The notes below the pieces were generated by a model, which did no database searches, was not told where the DNA came from, and saw only the letters and a program-made list of their open reading frames with translations. Below are positions 1,695-63,615 of a stretch of 64,000 nucleotides of DNA, piece after piece. This DNA comes from Eledone cirrhosa (lineage: Eukaryota): contig OZ024750.1 in the NCBI GenBank assembly GCA_964016885.1, positions 25,978,001 to 26,042,000 of the forward strand, in the 5' to 3' direction. The stretch's first letter is position 1; each line of letters starts with the position of its first letter. The position numbers and the translations under genes were made by a program.

Positions 1695-1702
1695 TCTATC
1701 TG

Positions 1703-1775
<73 letters not shown>
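1695..1775 (+). repeat. (TATC)n microsatellite; empty paralog of the LINE-filled site at 21648-30788
   Basis: Flanks aaatgaagagagaaag...cgtctatc and ctccaacagggggct match the flanks at 21580-21650 and 30785-30801. Confidence 0.9.
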
Positions 1776-7734: not shown

Positions 7735-8265
7735 TTTCCTTGAAAGGTCGAGCGGAGGTGGCGAAGACTTACATAGCGAATTTCTGTTTTCCTCTGTATA
7801 GTGGCTATGGTAAAAGAGGTTATATGGTGGACAAGATGGAGAGGGCTGAGGACAGATGCCTTTCACTCCGGACAATTCATTCCCTTCTTTAGGTACCACT
7901 TTAGAAGGAAAATCAGAGTGGAGAGAAAGGCACTGCACCCCAGTAAATTTACTGGAATGTGGGTGAATGAAGCAAAAGTGGCCCGAGAGATTGGGCCTTC
8001 TCTGTATATAAACCTGTAGGTTGAAGAAGAGAGCAAAAGAAAGAATGGAGCACTTGCACAACACGCTCCTGGAGTTGAGGGTTGTTCAATCTACGGGGTA
8101 TAAAGTAATCCATTTGTAACGCCCCCCCCCCACCCCTGTTGGGGATTTTAATTTTTGAATTTGTGAATTTGTTAAATTTTTTTTTACACTTTCGTATGTA
8201 AAATCCCCAACGTATGTCCTTGTATTGTCCCCTTTTCTTGTGCGCACTTGTGGAAAATAAGGAAA
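7735..8265 (+). mobile_element. Tx1-clade LINE, 5'-truncated and internally deleted (subfamily B-like)
   Basis: SLKGRAEVA joined to MVKEVIWWTR...GPSLYINL; ends gtggaaaataaggaaa(tcta)n. Confidence 0.85.
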
Positions 8266-8270
8266 TCTAT

Positions 8271-8321
<51 letters not shown>

Positions 8322-8325
<4 letters not shown>

Positions 8326-9040
8326 CCAGTTCGAGACAAGCTCTACAGACATGGGCGCCCGGGCAGGGACCCTGCAAAAAAGATCTGTCCGAGGTGCGTG
8401 CGAGACGAAGAAACCGTCGCGCACGCATTCATACACTGCCCGGGCGTCACTGACCTGTGGGGCTATGTAGAACGACTATTGTCGCGGGTGGGACCGATCC
8501 AGTTGACCACCGAGTCCATTGTCATGATCAAACCGCCACCCTCCTTCAAAAACGAAGGAGAGGCGGTTTTCCTTTGTGTGATAGCTATGGCGAAAGAGGT
8601 TGTATGGTGGACAAGGTTGAAAGGGCTGAGGTCAGACACCTTTCTCTCCGGCCAACAACTGATTCTTTTTTTCAAATACCACTTTGGAAGAAGAATCAGG
8701 ATGGAGAGAGAGGTGCTGTACCCCAGCAAGTTTTATGAAAGGTGGGTGAAAGTGGCGAGAATGGCCCGAGTGAATGGGCCTTCTCTCTATATCAGCCTGT
8801 AGGTTGAGGAAAAGTAGGAGGAGAGGAAAGGAGTACAAGCTCTTCGTACTCCTGGAGATGAGGGTTGCACATTTTTTTCGGGGGTATGTGTTACCCATAT
8901 AAACTGTCTCCCTCTATTGGGGAAAATCGACTAACTTTTAAATTCCATCTGTGATAACATTTTACACGTTTTTATTGTATGTAAACTTCCCCCTTTGTAT
9001 TTGTCCCCTTCTTTTGTGCCCCTGTGGCTAATAAAGAAAT
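8322..9040 (+). mobile_element. Tx1-clade LINE, 5'-truncated copy (subfamily A)
   Basis: Near-identical to 28823-29541; flanked by (TATC)n on both sides. Confidence 0.95.
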
Positions 9041-9123
9041 ATATCTATCTATCTATCTATCGCTTTACCTATCTACCTATATATCTATCTATCTATCTAC
9101 CTATCTACCAATCTATCTATATT

Positions 9124-9440
9124 ACCGCAGCAAATTTAATAAAAGGTGGGTGAATGTTGCAAAGATTGCCCGAGTGGTTGGGCCTTCTCTCTATATAAGC
9201 CTCTAGGTTGAGGAAAAAGAGGAAGAGAGGAAGCGAGTACTCACTCTTGGTGCTCCTGGAGATGAGGGTTGTACATTTTTTCGGGGTGTGTACAACCGTG
9301 AAACACCTCCCCCCTATTGTTATTTGGATTTCAATTGTTATTTGTTGTTTTATTAATAGTTTTATTTTCATATACCTGTATGTAAACTCCCGATTTGTAT
9401 TTGTCCCCTTCTTTTGTGCCCTTGTGGCTAATAAAGTAAT
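9124..9440 (+). mobile_element. Tx1-clade LINE 3' fragment (subfamily C)
   Basis: KFNKRWVNVAKIARVVGPSLYISL*, distinct 3' UTR, same terminal motif. Confidence 0.85.
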
Positions 9441-11227
9441 TTATCTATATGTCTGTCCTGTTAGTCCGTACGTCCTTCCGTCCATTCGTCCATCCATCCA
9501 TCCCGGCTTTTTAGTGTATTGTTTATTGTCAATTACGTGCGTTGACGCTGTTAAATTAAATTTACGTAAATTCAAAAAGATTGCAAGGCACACAATGGAC
9601 CGATTAATCTTATGTCCACTAATAAATGCCGAAATATCTTACATCTTTACTGTTTTTTAAAAAGTAGGAAATATTGGTCGATAGACTACAATAGGCACGC
9701 CTAGCTAAAACAACATTATTTTATAATCTTCTCTACCTTCGCTCACTTCTCAATTTCATTTCCTTCTCTACATTTGTTTTGACTCTCACATTTCCTCTTT
9801 CTTTTTTTCTGACCCATCACGCCTTTCTTAACATCACGCCCCTCTCTTAGTCTTTGTGTGACTACTTCATTGGTTGTCTTGCAAACCTGTAACTAACTAC
9901 TTAGAATAAGCATGACATCTTCAGCTACATCTGTATATATCTGTTACTAAATCACATAAGAGAGACGAAATGTGGCTCGAGATTAGTGAGATAAAATCTC
10001 TTGTGGTGGTACCATTTGAAATAGTATAACTGTTTATACATTTTTGTGGGTTGCTCAGATGTCTAGCCACCCTATATAAGACCCGAATGTTATTGAACAT
10101 GATTGAACATTTTTGGACAAAGGTTTCAGTGTGAGAATAACATGATAGCTTGCCGTGTTCGTTTCAGGATCATCTTCTAATTCCACTGACTTCATAGTTC
10201 CACTGACTTTCAAGGAGGGCAAAGATAAAATATCTCCCATTGGAAACTTTTAGCTCGACAAAGCAGAACTATACAATGTACGTCAACTTTTGGAAGACTA
10301 TATTTTCTCTTAGGGCTTACTTTTGACTCATGTTTTCTTTTAATCATTACAGGCTTTCGATAGAAGAATATAGACGACTACAGTTTTCCGGCTGGATGAG
10401 CTACAGATATCAAAGGAAGAGTTACTTGCAACTTTAATGTGTCGCATTTCTCTTTCTATGTTTATAATATTAATAATGGAAACTATCAATATTTTAAATC
10501 CATTAAACAATAAAAAAAGTTGAGGATCAGATTCTCACATTTTTTTTTCCTTAAAAGATTGTCAAAATCAAAGAGAAATTCCCACATGACACTCTCGTCT
10601 GAATTTCTTGTTTGATGTTCAAGTTGAACATCTGTAAATCATTGTTAAAACATAACGGGATATAAAATTAGGTGGGCATTGTTCTGGACAGGAGACATTA
10701 TGGGGAAAGAACAATATTAAGAAGAAAAAAATATGAGAGTTGGCTAGGATACGAGGAATACGCATGAGGTGAAAAAGTTATGCAAATATCTAGAGCAGAA
10801 CAACAGATCATTATACTAGTGATGTAAATAGAAAGAAGAATAACAGACGGCAATTGATGTATTTTCTGGCTCTATATATGGAATTTAATGTGTGTGAAAC
10901 AATTTATTCCTGTGTTATTTCTTAGGTTTCATCAGATGTTCCAATATTTGTATCAATGTTGAAAGTCTTAAGTGTATGTTAATCATAATTAGAGAGTACA
11001 AGGTACGACATTGTGTAACAGATGTATGTAGTGACAGAATTGTTTTTTGGGGGGAGAACGTTATCCTCTTCATATTGACAGATGTTCCCCAAACCATGGA
11101 TTCACTTTATGTTGGTGTGAATTAATGGTATTGCGTACAAGTGACACATGTATGTGACAATCTAAGCAGGAGTAAAGTGTAGCAAATTTTGAGTTGCATT
11201 GTGCCTCATTAGAGGCAATAACAATGT

Positions 11228-12844: not shown

Positions 12845-14427
12845 ATGGCAAAATGTACAAGTCTCCTTCGACCAAATCGCAACTACAACCGTTGTATACA
12901 GTGAAGGTACGAGCTTAACCAAGAATTATATGAAGCATACAAACAATCTGAACCCCAAAAGTTCGGTTTTATGCAAAGGCTAAAAACTTTATGGAACTCC
13001 AAACACCCAGAATTAGACTTTTCTCCAAAGCATTTAAATGAACAGGCAAAACGTATCATTAGATGTAAATTGATACATCTAACGGAATTGTGTGATACTA
13101 CAAATACAGCCCTTGTAGACAACCACCCCACCTCCACTGACAGACAAAGAGAATGGCCAGCTAAATCTAACAGTGAACAGCTCACTAACAATTTTGCTGA
13201 AATCCATCCCACTTCCACTGAAGAACAGCGAGAAAGGTCAGCTAACTCTAGTAGTAATTGTCACCACATCAACAACGAGGCTGAAATTCATGACTCTACT
13301 GTACACACAGAACACCAAAAACTAGTGGACACCTTACAAGTGAAATGAGACGATATGTTTCAAGAGATACACAGTCTTAATGTGAGTGACAGACCATACA
13401 AGACCAGAACCAGTAAAGAACCCACTAAATTGGAATTGGAAGCGGTGAACGAAATAGCTGGTAATTATCTGAAGGTTATACGATCTAAAGGTGTAGAAAC
13501 GACATTTGAAACGCTTAATATTTTGTTATATGTTTCAGCTGTCACATTACTATCATATAACACACATCTAAAACTACGTAATCAAGATACAAACAAAAAG
13601 CCTGAACCAGCGTGGATGCGAAATTTAAAAAGCAAAATTTTGTCCCTAATACGAAGTATCTCACACATCGCAGTCGTTATGAAATGCAACATAGAGAGCA
13701 ACTTCACACGACACCAGGAAGACCTAAAAAAAGAGATAGAGAGACTATTTGGAGATACAAAATTTAAAACTTTGAACTCCAAATTACACCAGTTGAAACA
13801 ACAACTCACAGCTACAACAGAAAGACTAAAATATAAGTCAACAGCACATAAACGACAAGTACTAAATAGATTGTTTGCCAGAGATCCTAAATCAGTTTAT
13901 CGCAGCTTCGGTAGCTGCTGTTGAACGCATGACCAAGAACTGGTACACCGATTTGATCCTTAGAGGTGAGAAGGAGCAAGTTAAGACTGATAAGATACAT
14001 TACCTGACGGGCATCTTTCAGGGTGATAGCTTGTCAGTGCTACTCTTCGTTCTCTTACTAAATCCACTATCTTACCGACTCAGAAAACAAGGTGGACAAA
14101 GAAGTGGGTCCAGAAGTATCTCCCATCTTTTCTTTGTTGATGACCTGAAGTTGTATGGGCCAAATACCAATGACATCAAGAAACAATTGGACCTCATTAC
14201 ACAATTTTAAACACAGGAGTTTACAAATCCAGTATCCAAGATACACCTTTAGCTTCATACCCATCATTATTGGAGCTACGGGTTATATACCAACCCGCTT
14301 GGACCAAAGTATGGCTGAACTTGGATTTGCGGACAAAGAGCGCAGCTCCCTAATTCATAGTCTACAAATGGCTGCGATAGCTGGTACCTTCAAAATGTTC
14401 AAAACATTCTTGCGATTCAAGGGATGA
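12845..14427 (+). mobile_element. Decayed RLE-type non-LTR retrotransposon, R4/Dong-like, internally deleted
   Basis: GIFQGDSLSVLLFVLLLNPLS, ISHLFFVDDLKLY, LNRLFARDPKSVYR and C-terminal IPIIIGATGYIP...LQMAAIAGT. Confidence 0.8.
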
Positions 14428-14668
14428 CAATTTCTTTTCTTTTACAACCTTGCCACCAGTCAACGCGATCAGTCGCATATTTTGGCGTGGGAGGCTATTT
14501 ATTAAATTTAAGATGAATACTATCTCCGACAGTAATGCCACAACTACAGTCATGTTGAATAATTGGTTATTCTTCTAACTATATCTTCTGAAGACACCTT
14601 TTATTCGAATTCGTATAGATATCCGGATAATTACATAATTCATTTTACAAGGATTTGCTACAAACAGC

Positions 14669-15760
14669 ATGGCTGAACACAACATCCATAACAAAATTAT
14701 GGAAGTACCGAAGACAAATAACAAGGAAGGTAAACAAACTCTATTCAGTTGTAGCTACAGAAGAAACCGAAATTATAAATCGCATTTCTCTTGGAGTTGC
14801 GAACTTAATAATGATATATTTAATTGTTATAAAATGTCAAAAACCAATCCCTCCATTGGCTATATGAACAGAATGAAACTACACTGGGACGAAATACACC
14901 CAGAGCTAAATTATTTCCCAGCGAAACAATTACGCCAACAAGCGACGTTTGTTGAACGTAAAAATAAGATAAATATTATTAATTGTAAGTCCCCCACAAC
15001 AAACATGTTATCAACAGCACGTGCTACAGGTCGCCATGCTACTAGACTTCCTAGCAGCCAGGTCGAACAGCGCCTTGAAACAACTATGCCTGTAAGAAAT
15101 TTGACACCACCTGTACCATCTAAGTCTACCTGGAATGCTGAGGAAAACACTATCGATAATAATAATAATCGAAGAAATAATAATAATAATCGAAGAAATT
15201 TGACACCACGTGTACTATCCGAGTATACCTCGACTGTTGTGGAAAATACTATCGATAATGATAATAATCAAAAGTATAAACAATTGAAATATTCCCTCAA
15301 CGAAATCTTCCAGAGAGAAATTAATTCATGCATAAATATCTCTCTTGCTGAACGTATTAAAACGACAATGTTTCATAAAAAAACAAATAATGAAATATTA
15401 CGTATTGACGAAATAGGGGGTGAATATTTACGACGGATAAAAACCCCAACATTTTGGCAAATCAACGCCTGTTTATATGCCTTAGCAACGACAGTGAAGC
15501 ATTATCTTGGTGATAGCAGAGATATTAACAAGAACAGAACACCACCAAAAATACCATCATATATAACGAAAATAGAAAAAAAGATTGATGACCTACGAAA
15601 AAACATAGAATATGTGACAATGCTCCTTACATGCAAACAAACACACAAAAAACCTCACTCCTCACCAACAAAGAGTGAAAAATAAAATAGAGACGATGTT
15701 TGGTAACAGTAGAACCAGAACTCTCCAATAGAAGCTGATCACCATCAAACAAGAATTGAA
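14669..15760 (+). mobile_element. N-terminal part of a second R4/Dong-like element
   Basis: IGYMNRMKLHWDEIHPELNYFPAKQLRQQA aligns with GFMQRLKTLWNSKHPELDFSPKHLNEQA of the upstream element; INACLYALATTV aligns with LNILLYVSAVTL. Confidence 0.7.
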
Positions 15761-21495: not shown

Positions 21496-21572
<77 letters not shown>

Positions 21573-21674
21573 TATATATAAATGAAGAGAGAAAGATGGA
21601 GGGACAGAGAGAGTAAGAAATGTGTATGTGTCTGTGTTTCGTACACGTCTATCTATCTATCTATCTATTTATCT

Positions 21675-21980
21675 AGAATTTACTGAAAGGTGGGCGAATG
21701 AAGTGAAAATGGCCCGAGTGATTGGGCCTTCTCTGTTTATAAGCCTGTAGGTTAAAGAAGAGAACAAAAGGAAGAAAGGAGAACTTGCACAATACGCTCC
21801 TGGAGTAGAGGGTTGTTCTATCGACGGGTATTAAACAACCCATTTGTGGCGCCTCCCCCTATTGGGGATTTCGATTGTTGTAATTATTTGTTTTATATTT
21901 TTTACACGACTGTATGTAAAATCCCCGGTATGTCTTTGTATTGTCCCCTTTTCTTGTGCGCCCTTGTGGCAAATATAGAA

Positions 21981-21981
<1 letters not shown>
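21675..21981 (+). mobile_element. Tx1-clade LINE 3' fragment (subfamily B)
   Basis: Matches 30460-30765; (TATC)n on both sides. Confidence 0.9.
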
Positions 21982-22051
<70 letters not shown>

Positions 22052-22053
<2 letters not shown>

Positions 22054-22090
22054 GTCCCCTTCTTTTGTGCCCCTGTGGCTAATAAAGAAA
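22052..22090 (+). mobile_element. 39-bp extreme 3' tip of Tx1-clade LINE (subfamily A)
   Basis: ttgtccccttcttttgtgcccctgtggctaataaagaaa between TATC repeats. Confidence 0.85.
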
Positions 22091-22100
22091 TATATCTATC

Positions 22101-23661
22101 TTACTGAAGGAATACGAAAGTCTCACAGGAGCGAAGCTGAACCGGGACAAGTCCATCGGTTTGCAACTCGGATCGTGGAGAGGCAGACCGATGCCTTCCG
22201 ATGGCGTCGTCGGACGCTGGACGGAAGGACCGGTAAAGCTGCTCGGGGTCTGGTTTGGTCCGGACCTCCAGGTGGAGAAGAACTGGAACGAAGTGACGGC
22301 CAAGGTGTTTGCACTCACCCAGAAGTGGGCCGAGTGTAAACTATCCTTGAAAGGTCGAGCGGAGGTGGCGAACACTTTTATAGCGTCCGCCATCTACTAC
22401 CGCTTGACCGTCGTGCCTTGTCCAGCCAAAACGCTCGCCAAAATGGAGCGCGCGCTGTTCCGATTCCTTTGGAAGAGGCGGGCTCCTTTGGTGAGAAGAT
22501 CCATCTGCTGCCAACACCCTTCTAACGGAGGGCTGGGGATGCCGTGGTTGACGATGCGCAAACACGCGCTCAGGCTGCGGCATCTCTACGTATTCCTCAC
22601 CGGACAACCGGTGTGGGCCCCGTTCGTGAGGCGAGCCTTCCCACGACTCGTCTCGCTGACCGAGCTGCAGTCCTGGGTCAAGAAAAGACCGAGGAAAATG
22701 AGCAACTGGCACATCGAATGTGCTCAGTCGCTCACAGCCCTCTGGCAGGCGGACCCGGCGATCAGTGGAGACTCCACTTCGTCATTCTATAGAGGGTTAG
22801 TCCGCAGCAAGTGCGACGACGCGCTCGGTGAAACTCTAGGCGTAGAGGAAGATGAACTGGCCAGTCTGTTCGGTAGGACCTTCCGCCCAGGACCGATGGA
22901 CAACTTCCAAAAGTCCCTTGCCTGGCAGTGCTACCGAGGAGCTCTACCAGTTCGAGACAAGCTCTACAGACATGGGCGCCCGGGCAGGGACCCTGCAAAA
23001 AAGATCTGTCCGAGGTGCGTGCGAGACGAAGAAACCGTCGCGCACGCATTCATACACTGCCCGGGCGTCACTGACCTGTGGGGCTATGTAGAACGACTAT
23101 TGTCGCGGGTGGGACCAGTCCAGTTGACCACCGAGTCCATTGTCACGATCAAACCGCCACCCTCCTTCAAAAACGAAGGAGAGGCGGTTTTCCTTTGTAT
23201 AATAGCTATGGCGAAAGAGGTTGTATGGTGGACAGGGTTGAAAGGGCTGAGGTCAGACACCTTTCTCTCCGGCTAACAACTGATTCTTTTTTTCAAATAC
23301 CACTTTGGAAGAAGAATCAAGATGGAGAGAGAGGTGCTGTACCCCAGCAAGTTTTATGAAAGGTGGGTGAAAATAGCGAGAATGGCCCGAGTGAATGGGC
23401 CTTCTCTCTATATCAGCCTGTAGGTTGAGGAAAAGGAGGAGGAGAGGAAAGGAGTACAAGCTCTTCGTACTCCTGGAGATGAGGGTTGCACATTTTTTTC
23501 GGGGGTCTGTGTTACCCATATAAACTGTCTCCCTCTATTGGGGAAAATCGACTAACTTTTAAATTCCATCTGTGATAACATTTTACACGTTTTTATTGTA
23601 TGTAAACTTCCCCCTTTGTATTTGTCCCCTTCTTTTGTGCCCCTGTGGCTAATAAAGAAAT
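22101..23661 (+). mobile_element. Tx1-clade LINE, 5'-truncated (subfamily A)
   Basis: Near-identical to 27981-29541; premature TAA at 23274-23276. Confidence 0.95.
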
Positions 23662-23915
23662 ATATCTATCTATCTATCTATCTATCTATCTCTCTATCAG
23701 TCGTGTGTCACTTCGCAGAGAAGTTTCCGTTAATTTATGTAAGGAAAAAACGTGAGTTTTTAGTTCAATTTTATATCATTGTGTAACTTGACCACCTGTC
23801 TGGACCTTCAGGTGGTGGGTCAACTCATTTTCGCCCCTTCAGGGGCGGAATATCCATTTAAAAAATGTTTCTCCATCGAATCTTGGAAAAAATATTGTAA
23901 AATTTTGATTACGTT

Positions 23916-25832
23916 ATGAACGCTGCGTCCAACGATAATGGTGGTGGAGAGGCAGTAAGACTACAAAGCTCGCAGTCAACAACGTCTTCTTCACTAGATA
24001 CTATAGAGATGGAAAGACAAAATGAAAATAAAAAAACGAATTCACATCCAAACAACACAAATGACACCAAACAGCTCAATGACAACAAAAATAACAGCAA
24101 AACCAATAATGATGATAAAAGCAACAATGATAACAACAACAAAGAAAAAAATAAAGACAACGCCAATAACACCAGCATCAAAGACAACAACAACACCAAG
24201 GAAAATACGGATGATACCAACATCGGTGACAACAAGAATAACAACAAGAATAACAAGAATAATGACAACACCACCAATACGGATTCCACAAAGAAACCAA
24301 AAATCTCCTTTGCGGAGAAAGTTCAAAAGAAAGAACAATTGATATATCTCGACATAACAAATGCTGAACACCTTTTAAAGGACGCTAAGAGATATGTCAC
24401 CTTCGAAAAAAATGGTGCTTTCAGCATCAATTCTCCGGTAGAAATTCGCAAGGAAACTGCTCTCAAAACGATAGTTTTTAGGACAGTTTCCAATTCTACC
24501 CGAAAACCAGTCCAATTGTCACAGAAAGATATTGAACTGGTTTTCAAAGATTCAATGAATGATATTGCATTCATTCAAAGAAGCAAACTTTTTGGGAGTA
24601 TTTCGGTACTGATGAAGGATCAATTGACGGCCCAAAATTACTCTGTGTCGCCAATTGTATCCAACCTGTACACCTTTTTCCCTACATACATGGGAAAAAG
24701 GACACAAAAGATCAGAATCACAAGTGTCACACCAAAGGTGAACATATGGTGGATACTGTGCGGCTTCATCAATTTTGATGAAGACAGAATACTGTCAGTA
24801 GGCAAGTCCCCCAGAGATGTATTCAATGGGACTAGCATTGAAGTTCTGGTGCAAATGAGCCCAGAGCGAATAGCTATGATCCCACAGCGTGTACTCCTGG
24901 ACGGACTTACCTACATAAACCTTTCGGTTGAGGGTAGGCGGCCTTCATGTTACCATTGCTTTAGCAGGGGTCACCTGAGGGCTTCCTGTCCTAAACTAAT
25001 GAACCAAAAAAAGGCTCTTCTGCCAACACCCATCAAAACAACACAACCACCAACACCACCACTACAACAACAACACCAACACACAAAAATAACCACAACA
25101 AACACAGTCCCACCCAACCTCACTCCACCTAAAACCACTGCAAAATCACATACAGACACAACAGCTCCCCAAGACATACCCCTCCCCAATCACACAGACG
25201 ATACAACAGATGAGGCTATCTCGCCATCACCCAGTGAAGACGAGGGAGAACCCCATCGCTCGAAAAGAAAGAAAAGACATCACAAAAGCAAAAAACCAGC
25301 AAACACTACCACAAACATACAACCACCAACACAAACAACAAAAATATCACAAACAAAACCCCCACCTCCTGAAAACAAAATACCTACAACAAAACGAAAG
25401 CACACACAAGAACTACAGACAAAAACAAACACAACACAAGAAAATTACACTTACACTTACATAAACACTGAAAACAAAACACTAATGGAGACCATTACGA
25501 ACGACCCTTCGGTTTTCACCGAAGGGAAAACTTTCGCCCACTCTATAAAAAATAGCAAAAAAATGAACCTAAAACTGATTAGGGTCCCTATACAAACTTA
25601 TAGGTCCCTAAAAGAAACATTTGAGAAGGATGTGGGGAATTCCTGCGTGAAACCACTCAACCGCGTCCTTCTCAAATGCCTCCCCACCCCAGACACCCCC
25701 ATCCCACCAGACCCCACCCCACCAAACATCTGCGTCCCCACCCCGCCGGAAACCACCACCCATCCAGACAACCCCTCCAACACCCCCATGGAAATCGTGC
25801 GGCCTGGTCCCCAGGAGGCGAAGGGTGAGTGA
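23916..25832 (+). CDS. LINE ORF1, nucleic-acid-binding gag-like protein (638 aa)
   Basis: CCHC knuckle CYHCFSRGHLRASC; Asn-rich N-terminus; Pro/Thr-rich C-terminal half. Confidence 0.9.
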   Translation: MNAASNDNGGGEAVRLQSSQSTTSSSLDTIEMERQNENKKTNSHPNNTNDTKQLNDNKNNSKTNNDDKSNNDNNNKEKNKDNANNTSIKDNNNTKENTDDTNIGDNKNNNKNNKNNDNTTNTDSTKKPKISFAEKVQKKEQLIYLDITNAEHLLKDAKRYVTFEKNGAFSINSPVEIRKETALKTIVFRTVSNSTRKPVQLSQKDIELVFKDSMNDIAFIQRSKLFGSISVLMKDQLTAQNYSVSPIVSNLYTFFPTYMGKRTQKIRITSVTPKVNIWWILCGFINFDEDRILSVGKSPRDVFNGTSIEVLVQMSPERIAMIPQRVLLDGLTYINLSVEGRRPSCYHCFSRGHLRASCPKLMNQKKALLPTPIKTTQPPTPPLQQQHQHTKITTTNTVPPNLTPPKTTAKSHTDTTAPQDIPLPNHTDDTTDEAISPSPSEDEGEPHRSKRKKRHHKSKKPANTTTNIQPPTQTTKISQTKPPPPENKIPTTKRKHTQELQTKTNTTQENYTYTYINTENKTLMETITNDPSVFTEGKTFAHSIKNSKKMNLKLIRVPIQTYRSLKETFEKDVGNSCVKPLNRVLLKCLPTPDTPIPPDPTPPNICVPTPPETTTHPDNPSNTPMEIVRPGPQEAKGE

Positions 25833-25865
25833 TCTCTTTTCCTCTTTTAACTTTTCAGCACCAAC

Positions 25866-28800
25866 ATGGCCAATATAAGAGTTGGATGTGTGAACGTACG
25901 CGGCCTGGGGATGCCCTGGAAACAGGGCAAACTCTTAAACGACCTCAGGTCGCACAGTTTGGATGTGGTAGCCATTTGCGAGTCCAGGATCCACGGCGAG
26001 CGACAGCTGGCCCCCATCTTCGATGACTTTGAGATCTACGCATCTCTCTGTCAACCGGGGGGTGGGGGCGGAGTTGCCGTTTTGCTGCGGAAACACCTGG
26101 GCCTCGTAACACAGACGGTACATCTGGACCCGGGGGGTCGACTGGTGGTCCTAGACGTTGACGGTAGTGAAGGTGGAGCGTTCAGGCTGGTGGCCGCATA
26201 TGCCCCATCCGGGACACCGCGGCCAGACTTCTTCAAACGTCTAGAGACTTTTCTGGGAACGTCCCGCTCCTTGCTTTTAGTGGGGGACTGGAATGGAATC
26301 CTAGATGCACGTTGGGACTATGTGGGAGCATGTCCCGATAAAGGGGGGTGTAACAGCCTCAAACAGTTAATCGACCGATTTGACCTGGCCGATAGATATC
26401 GACTAGATTTTCCGACTGCGCCACTGTGGACGTGGAGTAATCGTAGCGGAACATCTAGATCGTACCTAGATAGGGTTCTAGTTAGAAATAAGGATAGGGA
26501 CATGTTAAGCTGTCCACAAATGTTCATGGTTGCCTATTCAGATCACAAACTAGTGACCTGCATGGCCAACCTTGATAGAACCCATAGACAAGGACCCGGC
26601 TACTGGAAGCTGAACTTGTCGTTACCGACAAGCAAAGCCTACAGTAGACGGATTAGGACTTTAGTTAAACAGCACTTGACAGGGGCCATTGTCAACAACA
26701 GATGGTGGTACTCTCTCAAGAGGGCAGTTAGATTAGACTCGATAGTTTTTAGTAAAGAATTAGCGTTAGATAGAAATAGAACCGAGAAGGAACTGGTAGA
26801 TAAAGTAGAAGAGGCAATTAGAAGTGGCAACGTAGCCAGCGTGCTAGCAACGAGAACGGCCTTGGACCAGTTCTTCGACGCAAAGCACGAGGGCTGCGTT
26901 GTCAGAAGCAAAATACGTGCTCTGGGAAACGAGGGAGCCAAAGCTGTTAGCTGGGCCCGAGTGACGGAGGCAAAAAGTGGCAACAAGTCCACGATTCGGT
27001 CTTTGAAGGACCAAAACGGATGCGTGATACGTGAGCCGAAGCAGATGTGTGCGGCTTTTCAGCGGCACTTTGCTCGGCTGTTCGGGGGGAGCGGCGCGCC
27101 GGGAGAGGCTATGGATTTCGGTCCATACCTCGACGGCCTACCGCGACTCTCGGACAGCGAGGCGAAGTTCTGCGAAAAGCCGATTTCAGCCACTGAGATA
27201 GGGGACGCGCTGAGCCAATGCGGCAAACGCAAATCTCCAGGTCTCGACGGTCTACCCTACGAATTTTACGTAGCAATGCCGGACTTATTCTCCGGTCTCC
27301 TGGAAGCGGTCTACTGCAACTGGCAACAGAACGGGAGAATTCCCAGTTCTGTAACCGGCGGCGTGGTCACACTAATCAGGAAGGACGAGAATAAGGGGGA
27401 TGACATAGGCAACTTCCGGCCCATAACTCTGCTAAACACAGAATTACAGATTTTGGCCAAGGTGTTGGCAAAGAGGCTGGCGCTTGTCGTCGAGAACCTG
27501 GTGGGAGAAGCGCAGACATGCGCGATCCCGACCAGGTCCATACACGACAACCTCCACCTCATGCGATACATCATAGAGAGGGTAGGGTGTAAACCCGGCT
27601 TCGGTGGGGCCCTGATCAACTTGGATCAGTCTAAGGCTTTCGATAGGGTTGACCATCGTTACCTGGATGCGGTGCTCGAGGCGGCAGGCTTCGGACCCGT
27701 GTTCAGGGGCTGGATTGCTGCAATGCACAACAGCAACATCTGCTCAAGGGTCAAGGTGAACGGTTACCTCTCGGAGCCGTTCCATATTACGCGATCCATT
27801 CGACAGGGATGCCCTCTCTCCTCCCTTCTGTACGTACTGACTCTCGAGCCACTACTGCGGAAGCTGGAGCTATTGCAGGGCATCCCTCTGGAACCGGGAC
27901 TGCGGAAAGCGGCGTCGGCCTACGCCGACGACGTGACAGTAATGGTGTCGAGCGCCTCGCAAATCGAGAAAGTCGGCACCTTACTAAAGGAATACGAAAG
28001 TCTCACAGGAGCGAAGCTGAGCCGGGACAAGTCCATCGGTTTGCAACTCGGATCGTGGAGAGGCAGACCGATGCCTTCCGATGGCGTCGTCGGACGCTTG
28101 ACGGAAGGACCGGTAAAGCTGCTCGGGGTCTGGTTTGGTCCGGACCTCCAGGTGGAGAAGAACTGGAACGAAGTGACGGCCAAGGTGTTTGCACTCACCC
28201 AGAAGTGGGCCGAGTGCAAACTATCCTTGAAAGGTCGAGCGGAGGTGGCGAACACTTTTATAGCGTCCGCCATCTACTACCGCTTGACCGTCGTGCCTTG
28301 TCCAGCCAAAACGCTCGCCAAAATGGAGCGCGCCCTCTTCCGATTCCTTTGGAAGAGGCGGGCTCCTTTGGTAAGAAGATCCATCTGCTGCCAACACCCT
28401 TCTAACGGAGGGCTGGGGATGCCGTGGTTGACGATGCGCAAACACGCGCTCAGGCTGCGGCATCTCTACGTATTCCTCACCGGACAACCGGTGTGGGCCC
28501 CGTTCGTGAGGCGAGCCTTCCCACGACTCGTCTCACTGACCGAGCTGCAGTCCTGGGTCAAGCAGAGACCGAGGAAAATGGGCGACTGGCACATCGAATG
28601 TGCTCAGGCGCTCACAGCCCTCTGGCAGGCGGACCCGGCGATCAGTGGAGACTCCACTTCGTCATTCTATAGAGGGTTGGTCCGCAGCAAGTGCGACGAC
28701 GCGCTCGGTGAAACTCTAGGCGTGGAGGAAGATGAACTGGCCAGTCTGTTCGGTAGGACCTTCCGCCCGGGACCGATGGACAACTTCCAAAAGTCCCTGG

Positions 28801-29303
28801 CCTGGCAGTGCTACCGAGGAGCTCTACCAGTTCGAGACAAGCTCTACAGACATGGGCGCCCGGGCAGGGACCCTGCAAAAAAGATCTGTCCGAGGTGCGT
28901 GCGAGACGAAGAAACCGTCGCGCACGCATTCATACACTGCCCGGGCGTCACTGACCTGTGGGGATATGTAGAACGACTATTGTCGCGGGTGGGACCAATC
29001 CAGTTGACCACCGAGTCCATTGTCATGATCAAACCGCCACCCTCCTTCAAAAACGAAGGAGACGCGGTTTTCCTTTTTGTGATAGCTATGGCGAAAGAGA
29101 TTGTATGGTGGACAAGGTTGAAAGGGCTGAGGTCAGACACCTTTCTCTCCGGCCAACAACTGATTCTTTTTTTCAAATACCACTTTGGAAGAAGAATCAG
29201 GGTGGAGAGAGAGGTGCTGTACCCCAGCAAGTTTTATGAAAGGTGGGTGAAAGTGGCGAGAATGGCCCGAGTGAATGGGCCTTCTCTCTATATCAGCCTG
29301 TAG
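25866..29303 (+). CDS. LINE ORF2: APE endonuclease + reverse transcriptase + C-terminal Zn finger (1145 aa)
   Basis: APE motifs CVNVRG, ICES, GDWN, YLDRVL, SDH; GPGYWKLN; RT motifs KSPGLDG, FRPITLLN, DQSKAFDRV, RQGCPLS, YADD, LLGV; CPRC..ETVAHAFIHC. Confidence 0.97.
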   Translation: MANIRVGCVNVRGLGMPWKQGKLLNDLRSHSLDVVAICESRIHGERQLAPIFDDFEIYASLCQPGGGGGVAVLLRKHLGLVTQTVHLDPGGRLVVLDVDGSEGGAFRLVAAYAPSGTPRPDFFKRLETFLGTSRSLLLVGDWNGILDARWDYVGACPDKGGCNSLKQLIDRFDLADRYRLDFPTAPLWTWSNRSGTSRSYLDRVLVRNKDRDMLSCPQMFMVAYSDHKLVTCMANLDRTHRQGPGYWKLNLSLPTSKAYSRRIRTLVKQHLTGAIVNNRWWYSLKRAVRLDSIVFSKELALDRNRTEKELVDKVEEAIRSGNVASVLATRTALDQFFDAKHEGCVVRSKIRALGNEGAKAVSWARVTEAKSGNKSTIRSLKDQNGCVIREPKQMCAAFQRHFARLFGGSGAPGEAMDFGPYLDGLPRLSDSEAKFCEKPISATEIGDALSQCGKRKSPGLDGLPYEFYVAMPDLFSGLLEAVYCNWQQNGRIPSSVTGGVVTLIRKDENKGDDIGNFRPITLLNTELQILAKVLAKRLALVVENLVGEAQTCAIPTRSIHDNLHLMRYIIERVGCKPGFGGALINLDQSKAFDRVDHRYLDAVLEAAGFGPVFRGWIAAMHNSNICSRVKVNGYLSEPFHITRSIRQGCPLSSLLYVLTLEPLLRKLELLQGIPLEPGLRKAASAYADDVTVMVSSASQIEKVGTLLKEYESLTGAKLSRDKSIGLQLGSWRGRPMPSDGVVGRLTEGPVKLLGVWFGPDLQVEKNWNEVTAKVFALTQKWAECKLSLKGRAEVANTFIASAIYYRLTVVPCPAKTLAKMERALFRFLWKRRAPLVRRSICCQHPSNGGLGMPWLTMRKHALRLRHLYVFLTGQPVWAPFVRRAFPRLVSLTELQSWVKQRPRKMGDWHIECAQALTALWQADPAISGDSTSSFYRGLVRSKCDDALGETLGVEEDELASLFGRTFRPGPMDNFQKSLAWQCYRGALPVRDKLYRHGRPGRDPAKKICPRCVRDEETVAHAFIHCPGVTDLWGYVERLLSRVGPIQLTTESIVMIKPPPSFKNEGDAVFLFVIAMAKEIVWWTRLKGLRSDTFLSGQQLILFFKYHFGRRIRVEREVLYPSKFYERWVKVARMARVNGPSLYISL

Positions 29304-29542
29304 ATTGAGGAAAAGGAGGAGGAGAGAAAAGGAGTACAAGCTCTTCGTACTCCTGGAGATGAGGGTTGCACATTTTTTTCGGGGGTATGTGTTACCCATA
29401 TAAACTGTCTCCCTCTATTGGGGAAAATCGACTAACTTTTAAATTCCATCTGTGATAACATTTTACACGTTTTTATTGTATGTAAACTTCCCCCTTTGTA
29501 TTTGTCCCCTTCTTTTGTGCCCCTATGGCTAATAAAGAAATA

Positions 29543-29575
<33 letters not shown>

Positions 29576-30765
29576 GTGGAAGAAGCAGGCTCCGCTGGTG
29601 AGGATATCCGCCTGCTGTCAGCACCCCTCCAACGGAGGCTGGGAATGCCGCGGCTGATGATGCGCAAACATGCGCTGAGGCTGCAGCATCTCCAGGTATT
29701 CCTCACCGACCCCCAACCGGTGTGGGCACCATTTGTGAGCAGGCTTTCCCACAGCTCGTCTCGCTGACGAAGCTGCAGTCCTGGGTGAAGAAAAGACCGA
29801 AAACGATGGGCGCCTGGCACATTGAATGCGCTCAGGCGCTCACAGTCCTCTGGCAAGCGGGCGCAGCAATCAGTGGAGACTCCACTTCGACATTCTATAG
29901 AGGGTTTGTACCTTACAAGGGCGACGGCGTGCTCGGAGAGATTCTGGGCGTCGAAGAAGATGAGCTCGCCAGTCTGTTTGGTAGGACTTTCCGCCCGTGA
30001 CCTATGGATAACGTCCAGAGGTCCCTGGCCTGGCAGTGCTACCGAGGAGGTCTACTGGTTCCTGACAAGTCCTACAGGTACGGACGCCCCGGCAGGGATC
30101 CTTCCAAGAGGACGTGTCCAAGATGCGCACAGGACATTGAAACAGTCCTGCACGCAATTGTACACTGCCCGAGCCTAACCGACTTGTGGAACTATGCAGA
30201 ACAACTGCTGTCGCGTATGGGACAAATCCAGTTGACTGCCGAGTCCATAGTATGGATCAAACCGCCAGCCTCTTTCAAAAACGAAAGAGAGACGGTTTTC
30301 CTCTGTACGGTGACTATGGTCATAGAAGTTATATGGTGGACGAGGTTGAGAGGACTCAGGACAGATGCCTTTCTCTCCGGACAACAATTGATTCCGTTCT
30401 TTAAGTATCACTTTAGAAGGAGAATCAGGGTGGAGAGAGAGGCACTGCACCACAGTAAGTTTACTGAAAGGTGGGTGAATGAAGCGAAAATGGCCCGAGT
30501 GATTGGGCCTTCTCTGTTTATAAGCCTGTAGGTTGAAGAAGAGAGCAAAAGGAAGAAAGGAGAACTTGCACAACACGCTACTGGAGTTGAGGGTTGTTCT
30601 ATCGACGGAGTATTAAATAACCCATCTGTGGCCCCTCGCCCCTATTGGGGATTTCGATTGTTGTAATTGTTTGTTTTTATATTTGTTACACGACTATGTA
30701 AAATCCCGGGCATGTCTTTGTATTGTCCCCTTTTCTTGTGCGCCCTTGTGGCTAATAAAAAAAAA
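29576..30765 (+). mobile_element. Tx1-clade LINE, 5'-truncated, decayed (subfamily B)
   Basis: Diverged ORF2 C-terminus (MDNVQRSLAWQCYRG...CPRC...GPSLFISL) with frameshifts and stop; TATC both sides. Confidence 0.92.
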
Positions 30766-30883
30766 TCTATCTATCTATCTGTCTATCTCCAACAGGGGGC
30801 TCAAACATTCGGCCCACGAACTAATTTTCTGTGGCCGGTGGTAGAACCAATATTTCATATTGCATTATAACTGGTGAAAATAA

Positions 30884-31100
30884 GGCGGTGAGCTGGTGGA
30901 ATCGTTAGCACATCTGCCGAAATGCTTAACGGTACTTCATCCGTTTTTACGTTCTGAGTTCAAATTCCGCCGATCTCAACTTTGCTTTTCATCCTTTTGG
31001 GATCAATGAATTAAGTACCAGTTGTGAACTAGGATCGATGTAATCGACTGAACCCTAAACGCCAAATTTCATGCCTTGTTCCCATAGTAGAAATGATTAT
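30884..31100 (+). mobile_element. SINE (Deu/Nin-like family), paralog of 1876-2090
   Basis: Same sequence and same flanks. Confidence 0.7.
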
Positions 31101-31249
31101 AACAGGTGAAAATCTTCACCCACCACCACGTTTGGCCCACTGTGCCTCCCCCAGGACGTAATGGCCCTGTTGTGTCCTTGAGTTTGAGACCCCTCTTCTA
31201 CACACACATATACATACTTTACTTTTTTTCTGTCTCTGAACTACGCCCG

Positions 31250-31475
31250 TGCTGGAGCATCACCTTGGTAAGTTATTGGGACATCAAGAAACCAACAAGC
31301 ATTGGTGGGAGGGCAAACACAAACGCAAAGACACACACAGACATATATACATATATACGACGGGCTTCTTTTAGTTTCGGTTTATCAAATCCACTCACAG
31401 GGCTTCGGTCGGGCCGGGCAGTGGGACTGAACCTGGAAATATGTGGCCGGAAACAAGCCTCTTGTCACACTTCGC

Positions 31476-38146: not shown

Positions 38147-38148
<2 letters not shown>

Positions 38149-38968
38149 AAGGCGGGTAAAATTCCCGAGATCCATGGACGAGTTCTCTCCAGCGGTCTCT
38201 GTCCCTCATTATCGCTGCCATATCCTGCATCGCCAACAGACCAGTGTCTGTCCTTAGGGCATCAACGTATGTTAACCTTGGTCTTCCTCTTCTTGTGTGT
38301 CCATGTAGGGGCTCCCAAAGGAGCACTGAGTGCAATGTCAACTCTGGATGTCGGTGAGCATGTCCAGCCAACCTCAGTCTCCTCTGTGTCACTTTTGAGC
38401 TGACTTTTGGGATGCTCCCATACAGCTCTGAGTTTTTCATCCTCAGTGTATACTGATTAATGTTCAGAGCCATCCTCAGCATTCTCGTGTAGCACCCATC
38501 CCCCATCTGAGTGAGTCTCTTGGTCAGTGTCCAAGTCTCAGACCCATACAGCAGCACAGACTCCACTACAGCAATGAAGAGGCGGATTTTCAGGTCTCTA
38601 CGAAGGTCCGACTTCCACACCGATCTCAAGCTGTGACACGCCGCCCAGGCCTTGCTCTTCCTCTCAACCACATCATCTTCCGTATTCCCAATCTTTGCTC
38701 CCAAATACAGGAAGTCCTCAACCAATTCCAGAGGCTTCCCGCCTACATTAGTGATCCCCTCTGGCTTCTCAACATTCTCTACCAGATATTTTGTTTTAGT
38801 CTCATTCATTCTCAGCCCCACACTCATCGAAACAGTCTCAACCTCCCGCATCAAATCCTCTGCCTCCTTCACTGTATTTGTCACCAAAACTATGTCGTCG
38901 GCAAATTCAGCATCCGATACCTTTTTCGCCCCAACTCTCCTGCTCTGAGCCGGTGCTACAGTAAAGCC
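38147..38968 (-). mobile_element. RTE-type LINE, 5'-truncated, open ORF2 C-terminus
   Basis: AEFADD, GLRMNETKTK, VEDFLYLG, VLLYGSETW, RRLRLAGH, RGRPRLTY; TAG immediately followed by (AT)n. Confidence 0.9.
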
Positions 38969-39253
38969 ATATATATACCCATATATATATACATATATAA
39001 TAACTAATAAATAGGGAGATGTTTAAATTATAGCAAGAAGTTTTGAAAGAGGATCAATATTACAGATATATTATCCATTATTTCAATTGACAAGGTATAT
39101 CATAAACTTGTTACATAATTACTATACACACACACACAGATATATATTTATATGTGTGTGTGGGGGGTGCGGGTGCGGGTGTGTATCTGCATGTGTGTGT
39201 GTGTGTGTGTGTGTAAATATGATGTTTAATATAAAATCTTATTTATATTTCAG

Positions 39254-39385
39254 ATTGCCCAGTAGGATGGTTTGGTGTTAATTGTGAAGGGGTATGCCAT
39301 TGTAAGAACAACAACAACTGTGACCATCGAAGTGGAAGATGTTCAGATAGATGTACTGCAGATTATGTTGGTTACAATTGCCAGG
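39254..39385 (+). CDS. EGF-like repeat exon 1 (132 bp, phase 1-1)
   Basis: tttcAG|..DCPVGWFGVNCEGVCHCKNNNNCDHRSGRCSDRCTADYVGYNCQ..|GTata. Confidence 0.8.
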
Positions 39386-39421
39386 GTATATCATAAACTT
39401 GTTACGTATTAACTATAATTA

Positions 39422-39509
<88 letters not shown>

Positions 39510-39983
39510 TCACACTCACACACATACAAACACACATACACACACACACTCACACACTCACACACTCACACACATTCATACATATATGTGTATCTGTTTC
39601 CGCGTGTATGTGTGTGTTTGTGCTTGTGTTTGTGTGCATGTGTTTGTGTGTGTGGAAATATGATGTTTAATATAGAAATCGCTACTACAGGACTACTTTT
39701 GAATGAAATAGTTCTAATAGTTCTAAATGTATATATATATATACGTATGTATATATACGTACATATATATATACATGTTACTGTACGTCTGTATACATAT
39801 ATGCATGTACGTATACATACTTATATTTAAGTATCAGCCGTACTAAGAGTGAGAAATGAAATTTCATTATTTCCATTTATTGTTTTCGGTACGCCCGGCC
39901 GACTAACTCACTCGATATGCAAATTAGGTTGCTCAGTCGTTAATATGCATAAGGAAACTATATACTTTCAAAGGTTCAATCAA

Positions 39984-40052
39984 CTGACAGGAAGGTATAC
40001 GGTGCTGATGACAGCTAATAAGCTAGAAACTAGTTCATCGTTCCTTTGTCAG
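39984..40052 (+). ncRNA. Intronic sense hammerhead, family S copy 1
   Basis: ctgacaggaa...cggtg-CTGATGA-c agct aata agct a-GAAAC-ta-GTT-catcg ttcc..tgtcag. Confidence 0.8.
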
Positions 40053-40296
40053 TGTTGAACAAAATGGCACAATGGTTGCCGAACACTGTACGGCTAATAA
40101 TTCTGGCTGTTTGTTTACAAACAAACCGTGCATTATAATAAATATTCGGTAAACCCATACGTACATATATTTATATGTGTGCATGTATGTATATAGATAC
40201 TACTGTACGTCTGTATACATATATATATGTACGTATGCATACTTATATTTAAGTATTAGCCGTACAAAGAGTGAGAAATGAAATTTCCTTTTTTCC

Positions 40297-40338
<42 letters not shown>

Positions 40339-40470
40339 GTAATCTGAGTTTTTCGAATATTAATAATAACATTCGATTCGGATGCAATTATGCAAACGCG
40401 CTTGAATTTTATAGCCTTGTCAGTAGAATGAACACTTCATTCTTGCTCCTGTGTTGGCATGCCGACAGAA

Positions 40471-40514
40471 CTGCAAACACTAATGTTTCTGGGTATCACC
40501 CTTCGTCAGTACAG
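40471..40514 (-). ncRNA. Intronic antisense hammerhead, family A copy 1
   Basis: ctgta-CTGACGA-a ggg tgata ccc a-GAAACA-ttag-TGTT-tgcag. Confidence 0.8.
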
Positions 40515-40667
40515 CCCGCTGTTCTCCTGGAACACCGCTATCTCTTTCTCTCTATCTCGTGTGTGTGGGTGTGTGGTGTGTGCAGGTGTGTGCGTGCTGC
40601 TGTGTGCGTTCATGTGTGTGTGTGTGTAAATATGATGTTTAATATAGACATTTTATATATATTTCAG

Positions 40668-40805
40668 AATGCCGAATAGGAAGGTTATTTGTTCTTAAGT
40701 GTAGTGAGACATGCCATTGTATCAATAACAAAAACTGTGACAATCGAAATGGAATTTGTTCAGATGGATGTATGCCAGGTTATGCTGGTGACAAATGCCA
40801 AAAAG
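40668..40805 (+). CDS. EGF-like repeat exon 2 (138 bp)
   Basis: ECRIGRLFVLKCSETCHCINNKNCDNRNGICSDGCMPGYAGDKCQK; AG/GT. Confidence 0.8.
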
Positions 40806-41000
40806 GTATATCATAAACTTGTTACATAATTACTATAATTCCTATATACACACACACACAGATATACATGTTTATGTGTGTGTTTGTGCGTGTTTGTGTG
40901 TGTGTGTGTGTGGGGGGGGGGGGTATCTGCATGTGTGTGTATGTGTGTGTGTGTGTGTGTAAATATTATGTTTAATATAGAAATCTTATATATATTTCAG

Positions 41001-41132
41001 GATGCCAGATAGGACGGTTTGGTGTTAATTGTAAAAGGGTATGCCATTGTAAGAACAACAACAACTGTGACCATCGAAGTGGAAGATGTTCAGATAGATG
41101 TACTGCAGATTATGTTGGTGACAATTGCCAAG
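41001..41132 (+). CDS. EGF-like repeat exon 3 (132 bp)
   Basis: GCQIGRFGVNCKRVCHCKNNNNCDHRSGRCSDRCTADYVGDNCQ; AG/GT. Confidence 0.8.
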
Positions 41133-41168
41133 GTATATCATAAACTTGTTACGTATTAACTATAATTA

Positions 41169-41269
<101 letters not shown>

Positions 41270-41760
41270 CACCCACCCACACACACACACACTCACACTC
41301 ACACACATACAAACACACATACACACACACACTCACACACTCACACACTCACACACATTCATACATATATGTGTATCTGTTTCCGCGTGTATGTGTGTGT
41401 TTGTGTTTGTGTGCATGTCTTTGTGTGTGTGGAAATATGATGTTTAATATAGAAATCGCTACTACAGGACTACTTTTGAATGAAATAGTTCTAATAGTTC
41501 TAAATGTATATATATATATACGTATGTATATATACGTACATATATATATACATGTTACTGTACGTCTGTATACATATATGCATGTACGTATACATACTTA
41601 TATTTAAGTATCAGCCGTAATAAGAGTGAGAAATGAAATTTCATTATTTCCATTTATTGTTTTCGGTACGCCCGGCCGACTAACTCACTCGATATGCAAA
41701 TTAGGTTGCTCAGTCGTTAATATGCATAAGGAAACTATATACTTTCAAAGGTTCAATCAA

Positions 41761-41829
41761 CTGACAGGAAGGTATACGGTGCTGATGACAGCTAATAAGC
41801 TAGAAACTAGTTCATCGTTCCTTTGTCAG
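41761..41829 (+). ncRNA. Intronic sense hammerhead, family S copy 2
   Basis: Identical to 39984-40052. Confidence 0.8.
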
Positions 41830-42236
41830 TGTTGAACAAAATGGCACAATGGTTGCCGAACACTGTACGGCTAATAATTCTGGCTGTTTGTTTACAAACA
41901 AACCGAGCATTATAATAAATATTCGGTAAACCCATACGTACATATATTTATATGTGTGCATGTATGTATATAGATACTACTGTACGTCTGTATACATATA
42001 TGTATGTACGTATGCATACTTATATTTAAGTATTAGCCATACAAAGAGTGAGAAATGAAATTTCCTTTTTTTCCATTTATATATATATATATATATATAT
42101 AAATGTAATCTGAGTTTTTCGAATATTAATAATAACATTCGATTCGGATGCAATTATGCAAACGCGCTTGAATTTTATAGCCTTGTCAGTAGAATGAACA
42201 CTTCATTCTTGCTCCTGTGTTGGCATGCCGACAGAA

Positions 42237-42280
42237 CTGCAAACACTAATGTTTCTGGGTATCACCCTTCGTCAGTACAG
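42237..42280 (-). ncRNA. Intronic antisense hammerhead, family A copy 2
   Basis: Identical to 40471-40514. Confidence 0.8.
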
Positions 42281-42433
42281 CCCGCTGTTCTCCTGGAACA
42301 CCGCTATCTCTTTCTCTCTATCTCGTGTGTGTGGGTGTGTGGTGTGTGCAGGTGTGTGCGTGCTGCTGTGTGCTTTCATGTGTGTGTGTGTGTAAATATG
42401 ATGTTTAATATAGACATTTTATATATATTTCAG

Positions 42434-42571
42434 AATGCCGAATAGGAAGGTTTTTTGCTCTTATGTGTAGAGAGATATGCCATTGTATCAATAACAAAAA
42501 CTGTGACAATCGAAATGGAATTTGTTCAGATGGATGTATGGCAGGTTATGCTGGTGACAAATGCCAAAAAG
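42434..42571 (+). CDS. EGF-like repeat exon 4 (138 bp)
   Basis: ECRIGRFFALMCREICHCINNKNCDNRNGICSDGCMAGYAGDKCQK; AG/GT. Confidence 0.8.
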
Positions 42572-42927: not shown

Positions 42928-43009
<82 letters not shown>

Positions 43010-63579: not shown

Positions 63580-63614
<35 letters not shown>

Positions 63615-63615
63615 C
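63580..63615 (+). repeat. (TATC)n; second empty paralog of the LINE target
   Basis: Same flanks as 1695-1775. Confidence 0.9.

Follow-up and report, generated by a model that had tools for sequence, protein, structure and literature searches.

A young Tx1-type LINE lineage with a strong preference for (TATC)n microsatellites and serial, head-to-tail insertion at one site

The locus at positions 21648..30788 of the window, the 64,000-nucleotide stretch analyzed here (G000:C10:25978001-26042000 of a 3.0-Gb genome), raises the question of why five copies of a long interspersed nuclear element (LINE) lie head to tail within one TATC microsatellite. A first-pass annotation had proposed a new Tx1-clade LINE that targets (TATC)n and stacks on itself. 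The five insertions, all on the + strand and with TATC-phase sequence on both sides of each, were found where it had placed them. We consider it likely that a young Tx1-type LINE prefers (TATC)n in one orientation, that its endonuclease nicks the GATA strand and that the exposed end pairs with UAUCU repeats at the RNA terminus to prime reverse transcription. In the window, 8/8 copies of the lineage were in a TATC context, including a second array (7735-9441) omitted from the annotation, which had reported no copy outside such a context.

Target preference at the 5' junctions

Truncated copies bring no leader of their own, so their 5' flanks test the target. Four 3'-end searches gave 120 loci, the best-scoring 30 per search and not random draws, picked for their element sequence, irrespective of flank. 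Excluded from these were 2 matches to copy 4 of the array, 4 loci duplicating the L061 event, 12 + 15 loci with the junction outside the locus, 2 other duplicates and 7 internal deletions. The remaining 78 included two window copies.

A TATC tract was present at the 5' junction in 57/78 truncated copies (subfamily A, 28/38; B, 10/20; C, 19/20), and at least TATCT in 65/78. The GATA orientation was found in 0/78. The background of positions in a TATC tract was 0.22% of 56,920 and 0.43% of 318,720 (800 kb of arbitrary stretches). Tracts of at least 12 bp in 800 kb of arbitrary genome numbered 24 for TATC, 60 for ATT and 1679 for TA, and this rarity of TATC indicates that the TATC context is not due to chance. 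For a control LINE (window 38147-38851), 0/26 junctions were in TATC or GATA, with 4/30 unresolved. A pure TATC run of at least 12 nt was present at 46/73 junctions versus 126/3254 genomic TATCT words, indicating that more than one word is read at the target. Both the 57/78 5' junctions and the 108/112 3' ends that carried TATC lie above the published criterion for a target-specific LINE, one sequence type in >20% of flanks (PMC4494074).

Among the full-length copies, 30 loci were cut out of the 40 listed, L001 being the window copy. TATC directly preceded the common start in 30/30, and the same interruption, TCTCTATC, stood before the start in 27/30; other subfamilies have other leaders. The final 8 to 12 nt in front of the full-length copies probably belong to the element as its leader, in which case these flanks overstate the target. 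When 12 nt were discounted, at least 8 nt of pure repeat remained in 27/30. The exceptions were L002 and L008, which lie close behind another copy, and L028, which is tractless.

Several observations weigh against TATC targeting. The tract test failed at 21/78 truncated junctions; by eye, three of these were further internal deletions, and about nine were TATCT sites or interrupted tracts. About seven junctions had neither upstream TATC nor a visible duplication (L039, L057, L065, L067, L077, L088 and L127). A single TATCT was enough at L037, L119 and L155, the full-length copy L028/L091 lacked an upstream tract, and a set of top-scoring loci is not a random sample. The annotation had presented the family as a candidate for sequence specificity. 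In this genome-wide sample of 5' flanks a non-TATC majority was not observed, and a strong preference in fixed orientation stands, but strict specificity does not.

In place of TATC, the truncated copy at L039:500-600 (element orientation) has a (CCCTAA)n run of telomere type on its 5' side, although it lies inside a chromosome-scale contig.

Empty sites and serial growth of the array

The two paralogous sites that the annotation had described as sharing the array flanks around uninterrupted (TATC)n were real and empty. Identity to the array was 263/307 (right flank) and 55/69 (left flank) for the site at 1695-1775 and 264/304 and 53/69 for the site at 63580-63615. The tract at these sites bears out the claim that TATC is a target and not only a tail, although TATC is in fact both target and tail.

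Segmental duplicates of the array site formed a series with 0, 2, 5 and a different 5 copies. The empty duplicates were the more diverged. Three duplicates (L092, L093 and L094) contained only copies 1 and 5, the window array has three A copies between these two, and in L095 two A copies precede copy 1 and a third subfamily occupies the interval between copies 1 and 5. Differently filled duplicates indicate that the array grew by separate insertions, and copies were gained serially and independently at this site. The proposed stepwise head-to-tail growth held up. The annotation had counted two subfamilies; the lineages number at least four.

That the array arose in a single event, either because the reverse transcriptase (RT) jumped from one RNA template to another or through tandem duplication, is very improbable. 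The three A copies are adjacent and all missing from L092-L094, and tandem full-length copies at L096 and L098 are 99.5% alike, as such an event would predict. Against this, copies 3 and 4, both of subfamily A, have diverged by 2.2%, subfamilies A and B are about 20% apart over the 3' 300 bp, and at L095 the site acquired three other copies, which lie at two positions. One event for the three A copies alone may still be compatible with the data.

The tandem segmental duplication itself (window 1-2448, 21521-31445 and 61786-64000; L092-L095) has a period of about 50-70 kb and extends to at least C10:26.39 Mb. The LINE insertions date its copies.

Another copy was found upstream of 18/78 truncated and 15/30 full-length copies, compared with 4/22 background tracts (two by motif, two by eye; Fisher P values of 0.77 for truncated and 0.023 for full-length copies). 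Special recognition of older copies was considered and is not needed; later insertions also create upstream neighbors.

The copies that sit behind another copy would also be expected from passive accumulation, in which insertion is broad, a TATC tail is laid down, and copies survive in, or draw later copies to, inert repeat-rich DNA, the 5' tracts being duplicated or expanded tails. This was suggested for Drosophila Waldo-A/B (PMC3812793; papers are cited here from excerpts of their text). Some 3' tracts exceed the duplication (85 nt at L125, 31 nt at L077, and L091), so growth on the tail side does happen. However, no upstream copy was present at 60/78 junctions, and long tracts were already present in the empty paralogues. 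In addition, (TA)n tracts are 70 times commoner and unused, the orientation is absolute (0/78 reversed), and the bias exists already in copies that are 99% alike. Passive accumulation is largely refuted, and we regard it as highly unlikely.

3' ends, target-site duplications and a proposed mechanism

The 3' ends consisted of AATAAA, about six bases and then TATCT in 108/112 copies, and poly(A) was found in 0/112. The two bases preceding TATCT differed by subfamily. Target-site duplications of 10 to 20 bp, all starting at TATCT right after the element end, were detected at sites off a tract or in an interrupted one. Their lengths, with as much as 5 nt of 5' microhomology counted in, were 12 (L034), 16 (L142 and L153), 17 (L119), 18 (L037) and 20 bp (L132 and L155). 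The insertions at L037 and L119 are independent events in one single TATCT within another LINE. At L125 an older element lies downstream and its first bases are repeated in the duplication, indicating that insertion took place at a tract's last unit, and the 85-nt 3' tract of this copy indicates that repeat can be added on the tail side. Reiterated units were also seen at L136 and L049. The 5' truncations together with the target-site duplications form the signature left by target-primed reverse transcription (TPRT).

The following sequence of events is proposed from the junction data and from what is known of TPRT in L1, R1 and SART1. Transcription would read through AATAAA into the flanking TATC, so that the RNA would terminate in a few UAUC units. 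The endonuclease would nick the GATA strand, and the free DNA end would pair with UAUCU and prime reverse transcription within the repeat, not on poly(A). A second nick 10 to 20 bp downstream would give rise to the target-site duplication. The tract left on both sides after each insertion would allow later copies of any subfamily to stack, and slippage at priming may sometimes lengthen the tract. The position of the nick is not fixable here, as tail and target overlap.

Tandem copies at L128 share a truncation point, and at L117 the same short fragment is present on both sides. These arrangements suggest that 5' ends were joined through homology with an older copy's duplicated first bases.

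A sister family in (ATT)n

A relative ending in ATT was present in two of the first 20 arbitrary genome stretches, and a search with its 3' end gave 2026 candidates, 40 of which scored at 100%. ATT repeats followed the 3' end in 30/30 sister loci. Full-length 5' ends of two ATT subfamilies passed the tract test in 18/19 cases (full-length copies only, with the leader effect not discounted), and TATC was found at 0/19 of these ends. The 13 partial ATT matches were mostly internal breaks or other subfamilies. The sister ORF2 (open reading frame 2) is 71% identical to the window ORF2. A tree of ORF2 separated 13 elements flanked by TATC from 6 flanked by ATT, with FastTree support of 0.815 for the TATC side and 0.995 for the ATT side with P0001. 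The two clades differ at endonuclease positions 47, 62, 63, 163, 184, 215 and 235 by rule and at 152 and 194 by eye; these differences are one contrast between two clades and say nothing on cause. Endonuclease positions 152-156 align with the L1 loop bearing R155, and the L1 hairpin loop has been tied to target reading (PMC1950540).

The sister family bears directly on an alternative in which the RNA tail programs the target. The endonuclease would then be fairly loose, recognizing an ATA-type word in TATC, ATT and TA repeats, the RNA 3' repeat would select primable nicks, and the tails would be the main difference between the sisters. Both targets have ATA on the cut strand, the target-reading hairpin loop is nearly alike in the TATC and ATT families (WTWSNRSGTSRSY versus WTWTNRIGSSRSY), and all that off-tract sites have in common is the five bases pairing with the tail. 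A link between tail and target was proposed for RTE LINEs (PMC6007223). On the other side, at least seven endonuclease positions separate the clades, some in predicted DNA-facing loops, although as one clade contrast they are not independent evidence. Priming needs only five paired bases, yet tracts are strongly preferred. There was also no cross-use of tails among 242 3' ends: no TATC-subfamily 3' end was followed by ATT, and 0/44 ATT-family ends were followed by TATC. We therefore regard control by the tail as rather unlikely and favor a targeting step in which endonuclease and RNA pairing probably both contribute to repeat choice.

More speculatively, and with a chance only slightly better than that of tail programming, a separate invertebrate Tx1 lineage may have split into two active sisters with disjoint (TATC)n and (ATT)n targets on a nearly shared endonuclease. 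The switch would have been made mainly by the repeat at the RNA end, and the result would be an RNA-retargetable LINE that builds its own microsatellites.

The ATT sister families (L327:1620-7441, L292-L340, L353, L354, L358-L360) are Tx1-type, young, intact and stacking, and several of their copies lie inside the ATT tail of a SINE-like repeat (SINE, short interspersed nuclear element). Some ATT elements (L331, L354 and L358; L284 and L334) share ORF2 and 3' ends and differ in the 5' untranslated region (UTR) and ORF1, with the switch near the ORF1-ORF2 border, which suggests exchange of 5' modules among subfamilies.

Structure of the array and of the full-length element

The coordinates of the array, its empty counterparts and the genes of the full-length element are given in Table 1. 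Copy 1 has four additional bases, AGAA, at its 5' junction. Copy 3 is 97.8% identical to the full-length copy 4 and has a premature stop at 23276.

Table 1. Features of the TATC arrays and related sites in the window
Feature	Position	Strand	Remarks
Empty paralogous site, unbroken (TATC)n	1695..1775	+	
Second TATC-spaced array, three truncated copies, same lineage	7735..9441 (7735-8265, 8322-9041, 9125-9441)	+	tblastn of window
Left host flank	21581..21647	+	common to empty paralogous sites and filled duplicates elsewhere on contig
(TATC)n tract, 5' side of array	21648..21674	+	
Copy 1, subfamily B, 5'-truncated 3' fragment	21675..21983	+	also in duplicates L092-L095
(TATC)17 spacer	21984..22051	+	
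Copy 2, subfamily A, final 39-40 bp only	22052..22091	+	missing from duplicates L092-L095
Short spacer, about two TATC units, ATATATCTATCT	22092..22100	+	final bases also belong to copy 3
Copy 3, subfamily A, 5'-truncated, 1560 bp	22101..23662	+	missing from duplicates
(TATC)7 spacer and TCTCTATC leader	23663..23698	+	leader in 27/30 full-length copies
Copy 4, full-length LINE of subfamily A with both ORFs open	23699..29540	+	missing from duplicates
ORF1, 638 aa	23916..25832	+	one CCHC knuckle at residue 345
ORF2, 1145 aa, APE + RT + zf-RVT	25866..29303	+	domain match
3' UTR	29304..29542	+	terminates AATAAA-GAAA-TA, joined straight to TATCT, without poly(A)
(TATC)8 spacer	29543..29575	+	
Copy 5, subfamily B, 5'-truncated, frameshifted, 1190 bp	29576..30766	+	also in duplicates L092-L095
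(TATC)n tract, 3' side of array	30767..30788	+	
Right host flank	30789..31445	+	common to empty paralogous sites
Empty paralogous site, unbroken (TATC)n	63580..63615	+	

The full-length element has the hallmarks of the L1 group, namely, an N-terminal APE, an RT, a C-terminal zinc-binding domain and a separate ORF1. The APE endonuclease residues of ORF2 are N10, E39, D141, N143, D202, D226 and H227, and the RT motif YADD is at residue 686. The catalytic residues align to human L1 ORF2p, which was also the best solved relative (E value of 6e-116). For an RRM-like core in ORF1, the one indication was a 0.90 feature-search match to ZCCHC3 RNA-binding clusters; the single-sequence fold prediction had a predicted local distance difference test value (pLDDT) of 37 and was unusable. 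The RNA fold of the 3' UTR gave no structure signal (z score of -0.39). An Inr/DPE (initiator/downstream promoter element) promoter at the 5' end was weighed by eye and dropped.

Family size and age

A search of the genome with the 5' end gave 1051 candidates, of which 40 scored at 99-100% identity, and a protein query from the C-terminal part of ORF2 gave 55,017 candidates, which are not to be equated with copies. The 1145-aa ORF2 was retained in 11/14 full-length regions, and both ORFs were full length in 8/14. These regions were 98.8-99.6% identical to the window copy, and with copies 99% alike the lineage is young.

Between 0.28 and 0.81 of the element's sampled words were found in each of seven organisms, and no RNA data set was listed among the matches. 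In one contig of another organism (run X9), a truncated copy lay behind a 3' end and a TATC spacer; it was the only such TATC-spaced stack among these contigs, which break off at the repeat. Relatives in metagenomes comprised 71 loci, the best segments being mostly 23-33% identical; the 13 loci that reached the ORF2 end were without a TATC tail and are uninformative on the target.

Clade placement and relation to known target-specific LINEs

In a 35-row RT tree, a subset of 73 rows, the lineage formed a clade with four relatives of 37-41% identity (support, 100/100). Protein relatives were found at 37-44% identity, with their flanks outside the sequence seen. The clade was nested in a 22-row group (100/99) of fish, amphibian, cnidarian and lancelet Tx1-type proteins, apart from vertebrate L1 and plant L1. 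Union with vertebrate L1 was rejected (approximately unbiased test, p-AU of 9e-5; LG+G4; the group was chosen after an earlier tree had been viewed). Union with a four-row fish set was also rejected; this set includes BAC82621 and BAD04856, presumably deposits of the 2004 Kibi/Koshi study, and its rows may be Kibi or Koshi. The RT tree thus supports the Tx1 assignment made in the first-pass annotation, with anchors that are inferred (ZCCHC3-type ORF1 domains and two fish accessions) and not named Repbase families. On this phylogeny, repeat targeting may have arisen here apart from Kibi and Koshi.

Kibi, in (TC)n, and Koshi, in (TTC)n, belong to the teleost Tx1 clade (PMC4494074, PMC3812793). 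As excerpted, they resemble this LINE in being APE type with two ORFs and in their fixed orientation in a microsatellite with a pyrimidine-rich strand; the LINE described here differs in its target unit, TATC (ATT in the sister), and in its invertebrate host. Crocodilian Tx1 families prefer (TTCC)n or (TTTC)n (PMC4494074) and share the preference for a tetranucleotide microsatellite. Their unit is different and the families sit near Kibi and Koshi, whereas the present lineage is young and has mixed-subfamily arrays. The R1-clade elements Waldo (ACAY) and Mino (AC), as well as Dong (TAA), Togen (TG) and some HERO families, also target microsatellites (PMC3812793, PMC4640811), for which the repeat is likewise a safe, self-renewing target; the TAA of Dong is the same repeat as that used by the ATT sister. 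They belong to other clades, whereas the ORF2 found here is of the L1 group. For SART1/TRAS1, the excerpts state that the endonuclease sets the repeat target and that annealing of RNA to the target aids priming (PMC7265360). Insertion into a simple repeat, a need for several units and, as proposed here, RNA-target annealing at priming are shared with the LINE described; in contrast, SART1/TRAS1 are R1-clade, telomeric elements that keep a poly(A) tail, which these copies lack.

An expansion of L1-Tx1 in coleoids has been described (PMC8967140), and 13 recently active L1-Tx1 families with 421 insertions were reported for O. vulgaris (PMC13282606). If the host is an octopod, those families are probably the same as, or related to, this LINE. 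The excerpts of the octopus L1-Tx1 accounts gave no target site, and the word "target" did not occur in PMC13282606.

The microsatellite targets in the published excerpts were TC, TTC, TTCC/TTTC, ACAY, AC, TAA and TG, and TATC was not among them (PMC4494074, PMC3812793, PMC13282606, PMC6007223, PMC1950540, PMC5203782, PMC4889948, PMC9115989, PMC8967140, PMC9004415, PMC7265360, PMC3747384, PMC4640811). A TATC- or GATA-targeting LINE was not found in the literature searched, with Repbase, Dfam, Repbase Reports and subscription journals outside its coverage. Microsatellite targeting itself is an established Tx1 habit; TATC is likely a novel target unit.

Implications and neighboring repeats

The choice of microsatellites by APE-type LINEs has been called not well understood (PMC3812793), and specificity was reportedly not carried over when L1 was given a Tx1 loop (PMC1950540). 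The sister pair described here is young and intact, with ORF2s 71% identical and targets that do not overlap, and is likely suited to testing directly whether repeat choice lies with the endonuclease or with the RNA tail; known pairs of microsatellite LINEs are far more diverged. In many genomes GATA repeats are frequent and for the most part non-coding, and a GATA-seeking LINE is therefore of interest as an insertion tool. The preference also explains multi-kilobase LINE arrays growing within one microsatellite in the genome studied, where GATA markers should be used with caution, as they often have LINE flanks.

The control LINE at window 38147-38851, on the - strand (L242-L271), is unrelated, has a weak Pfam DUF6451 match and is presumably RTE-like. 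It adjoined (TA)n at 19/26 5' junctions and 21/27 3' ends. Of its copies, 10/27 ended in TAGATAGA, which is TATC on the opposite strand, indicating that this LINE seeds targets for the TATC family. At L123, a TATC-family copy was inserted tail to tail in a control-LINE end; a vacant TATC end of this kind is present at window 45956-45967, and 2/22 background tracts were of the same kind.

Elsewhere in the window, two ORFs (189 and 338 aa) at 13355-15685, without a credible Pfam family, are probably another decayed retroelement, and the region 39092-57240 contains internally repeated units of 1.7-2 kb.

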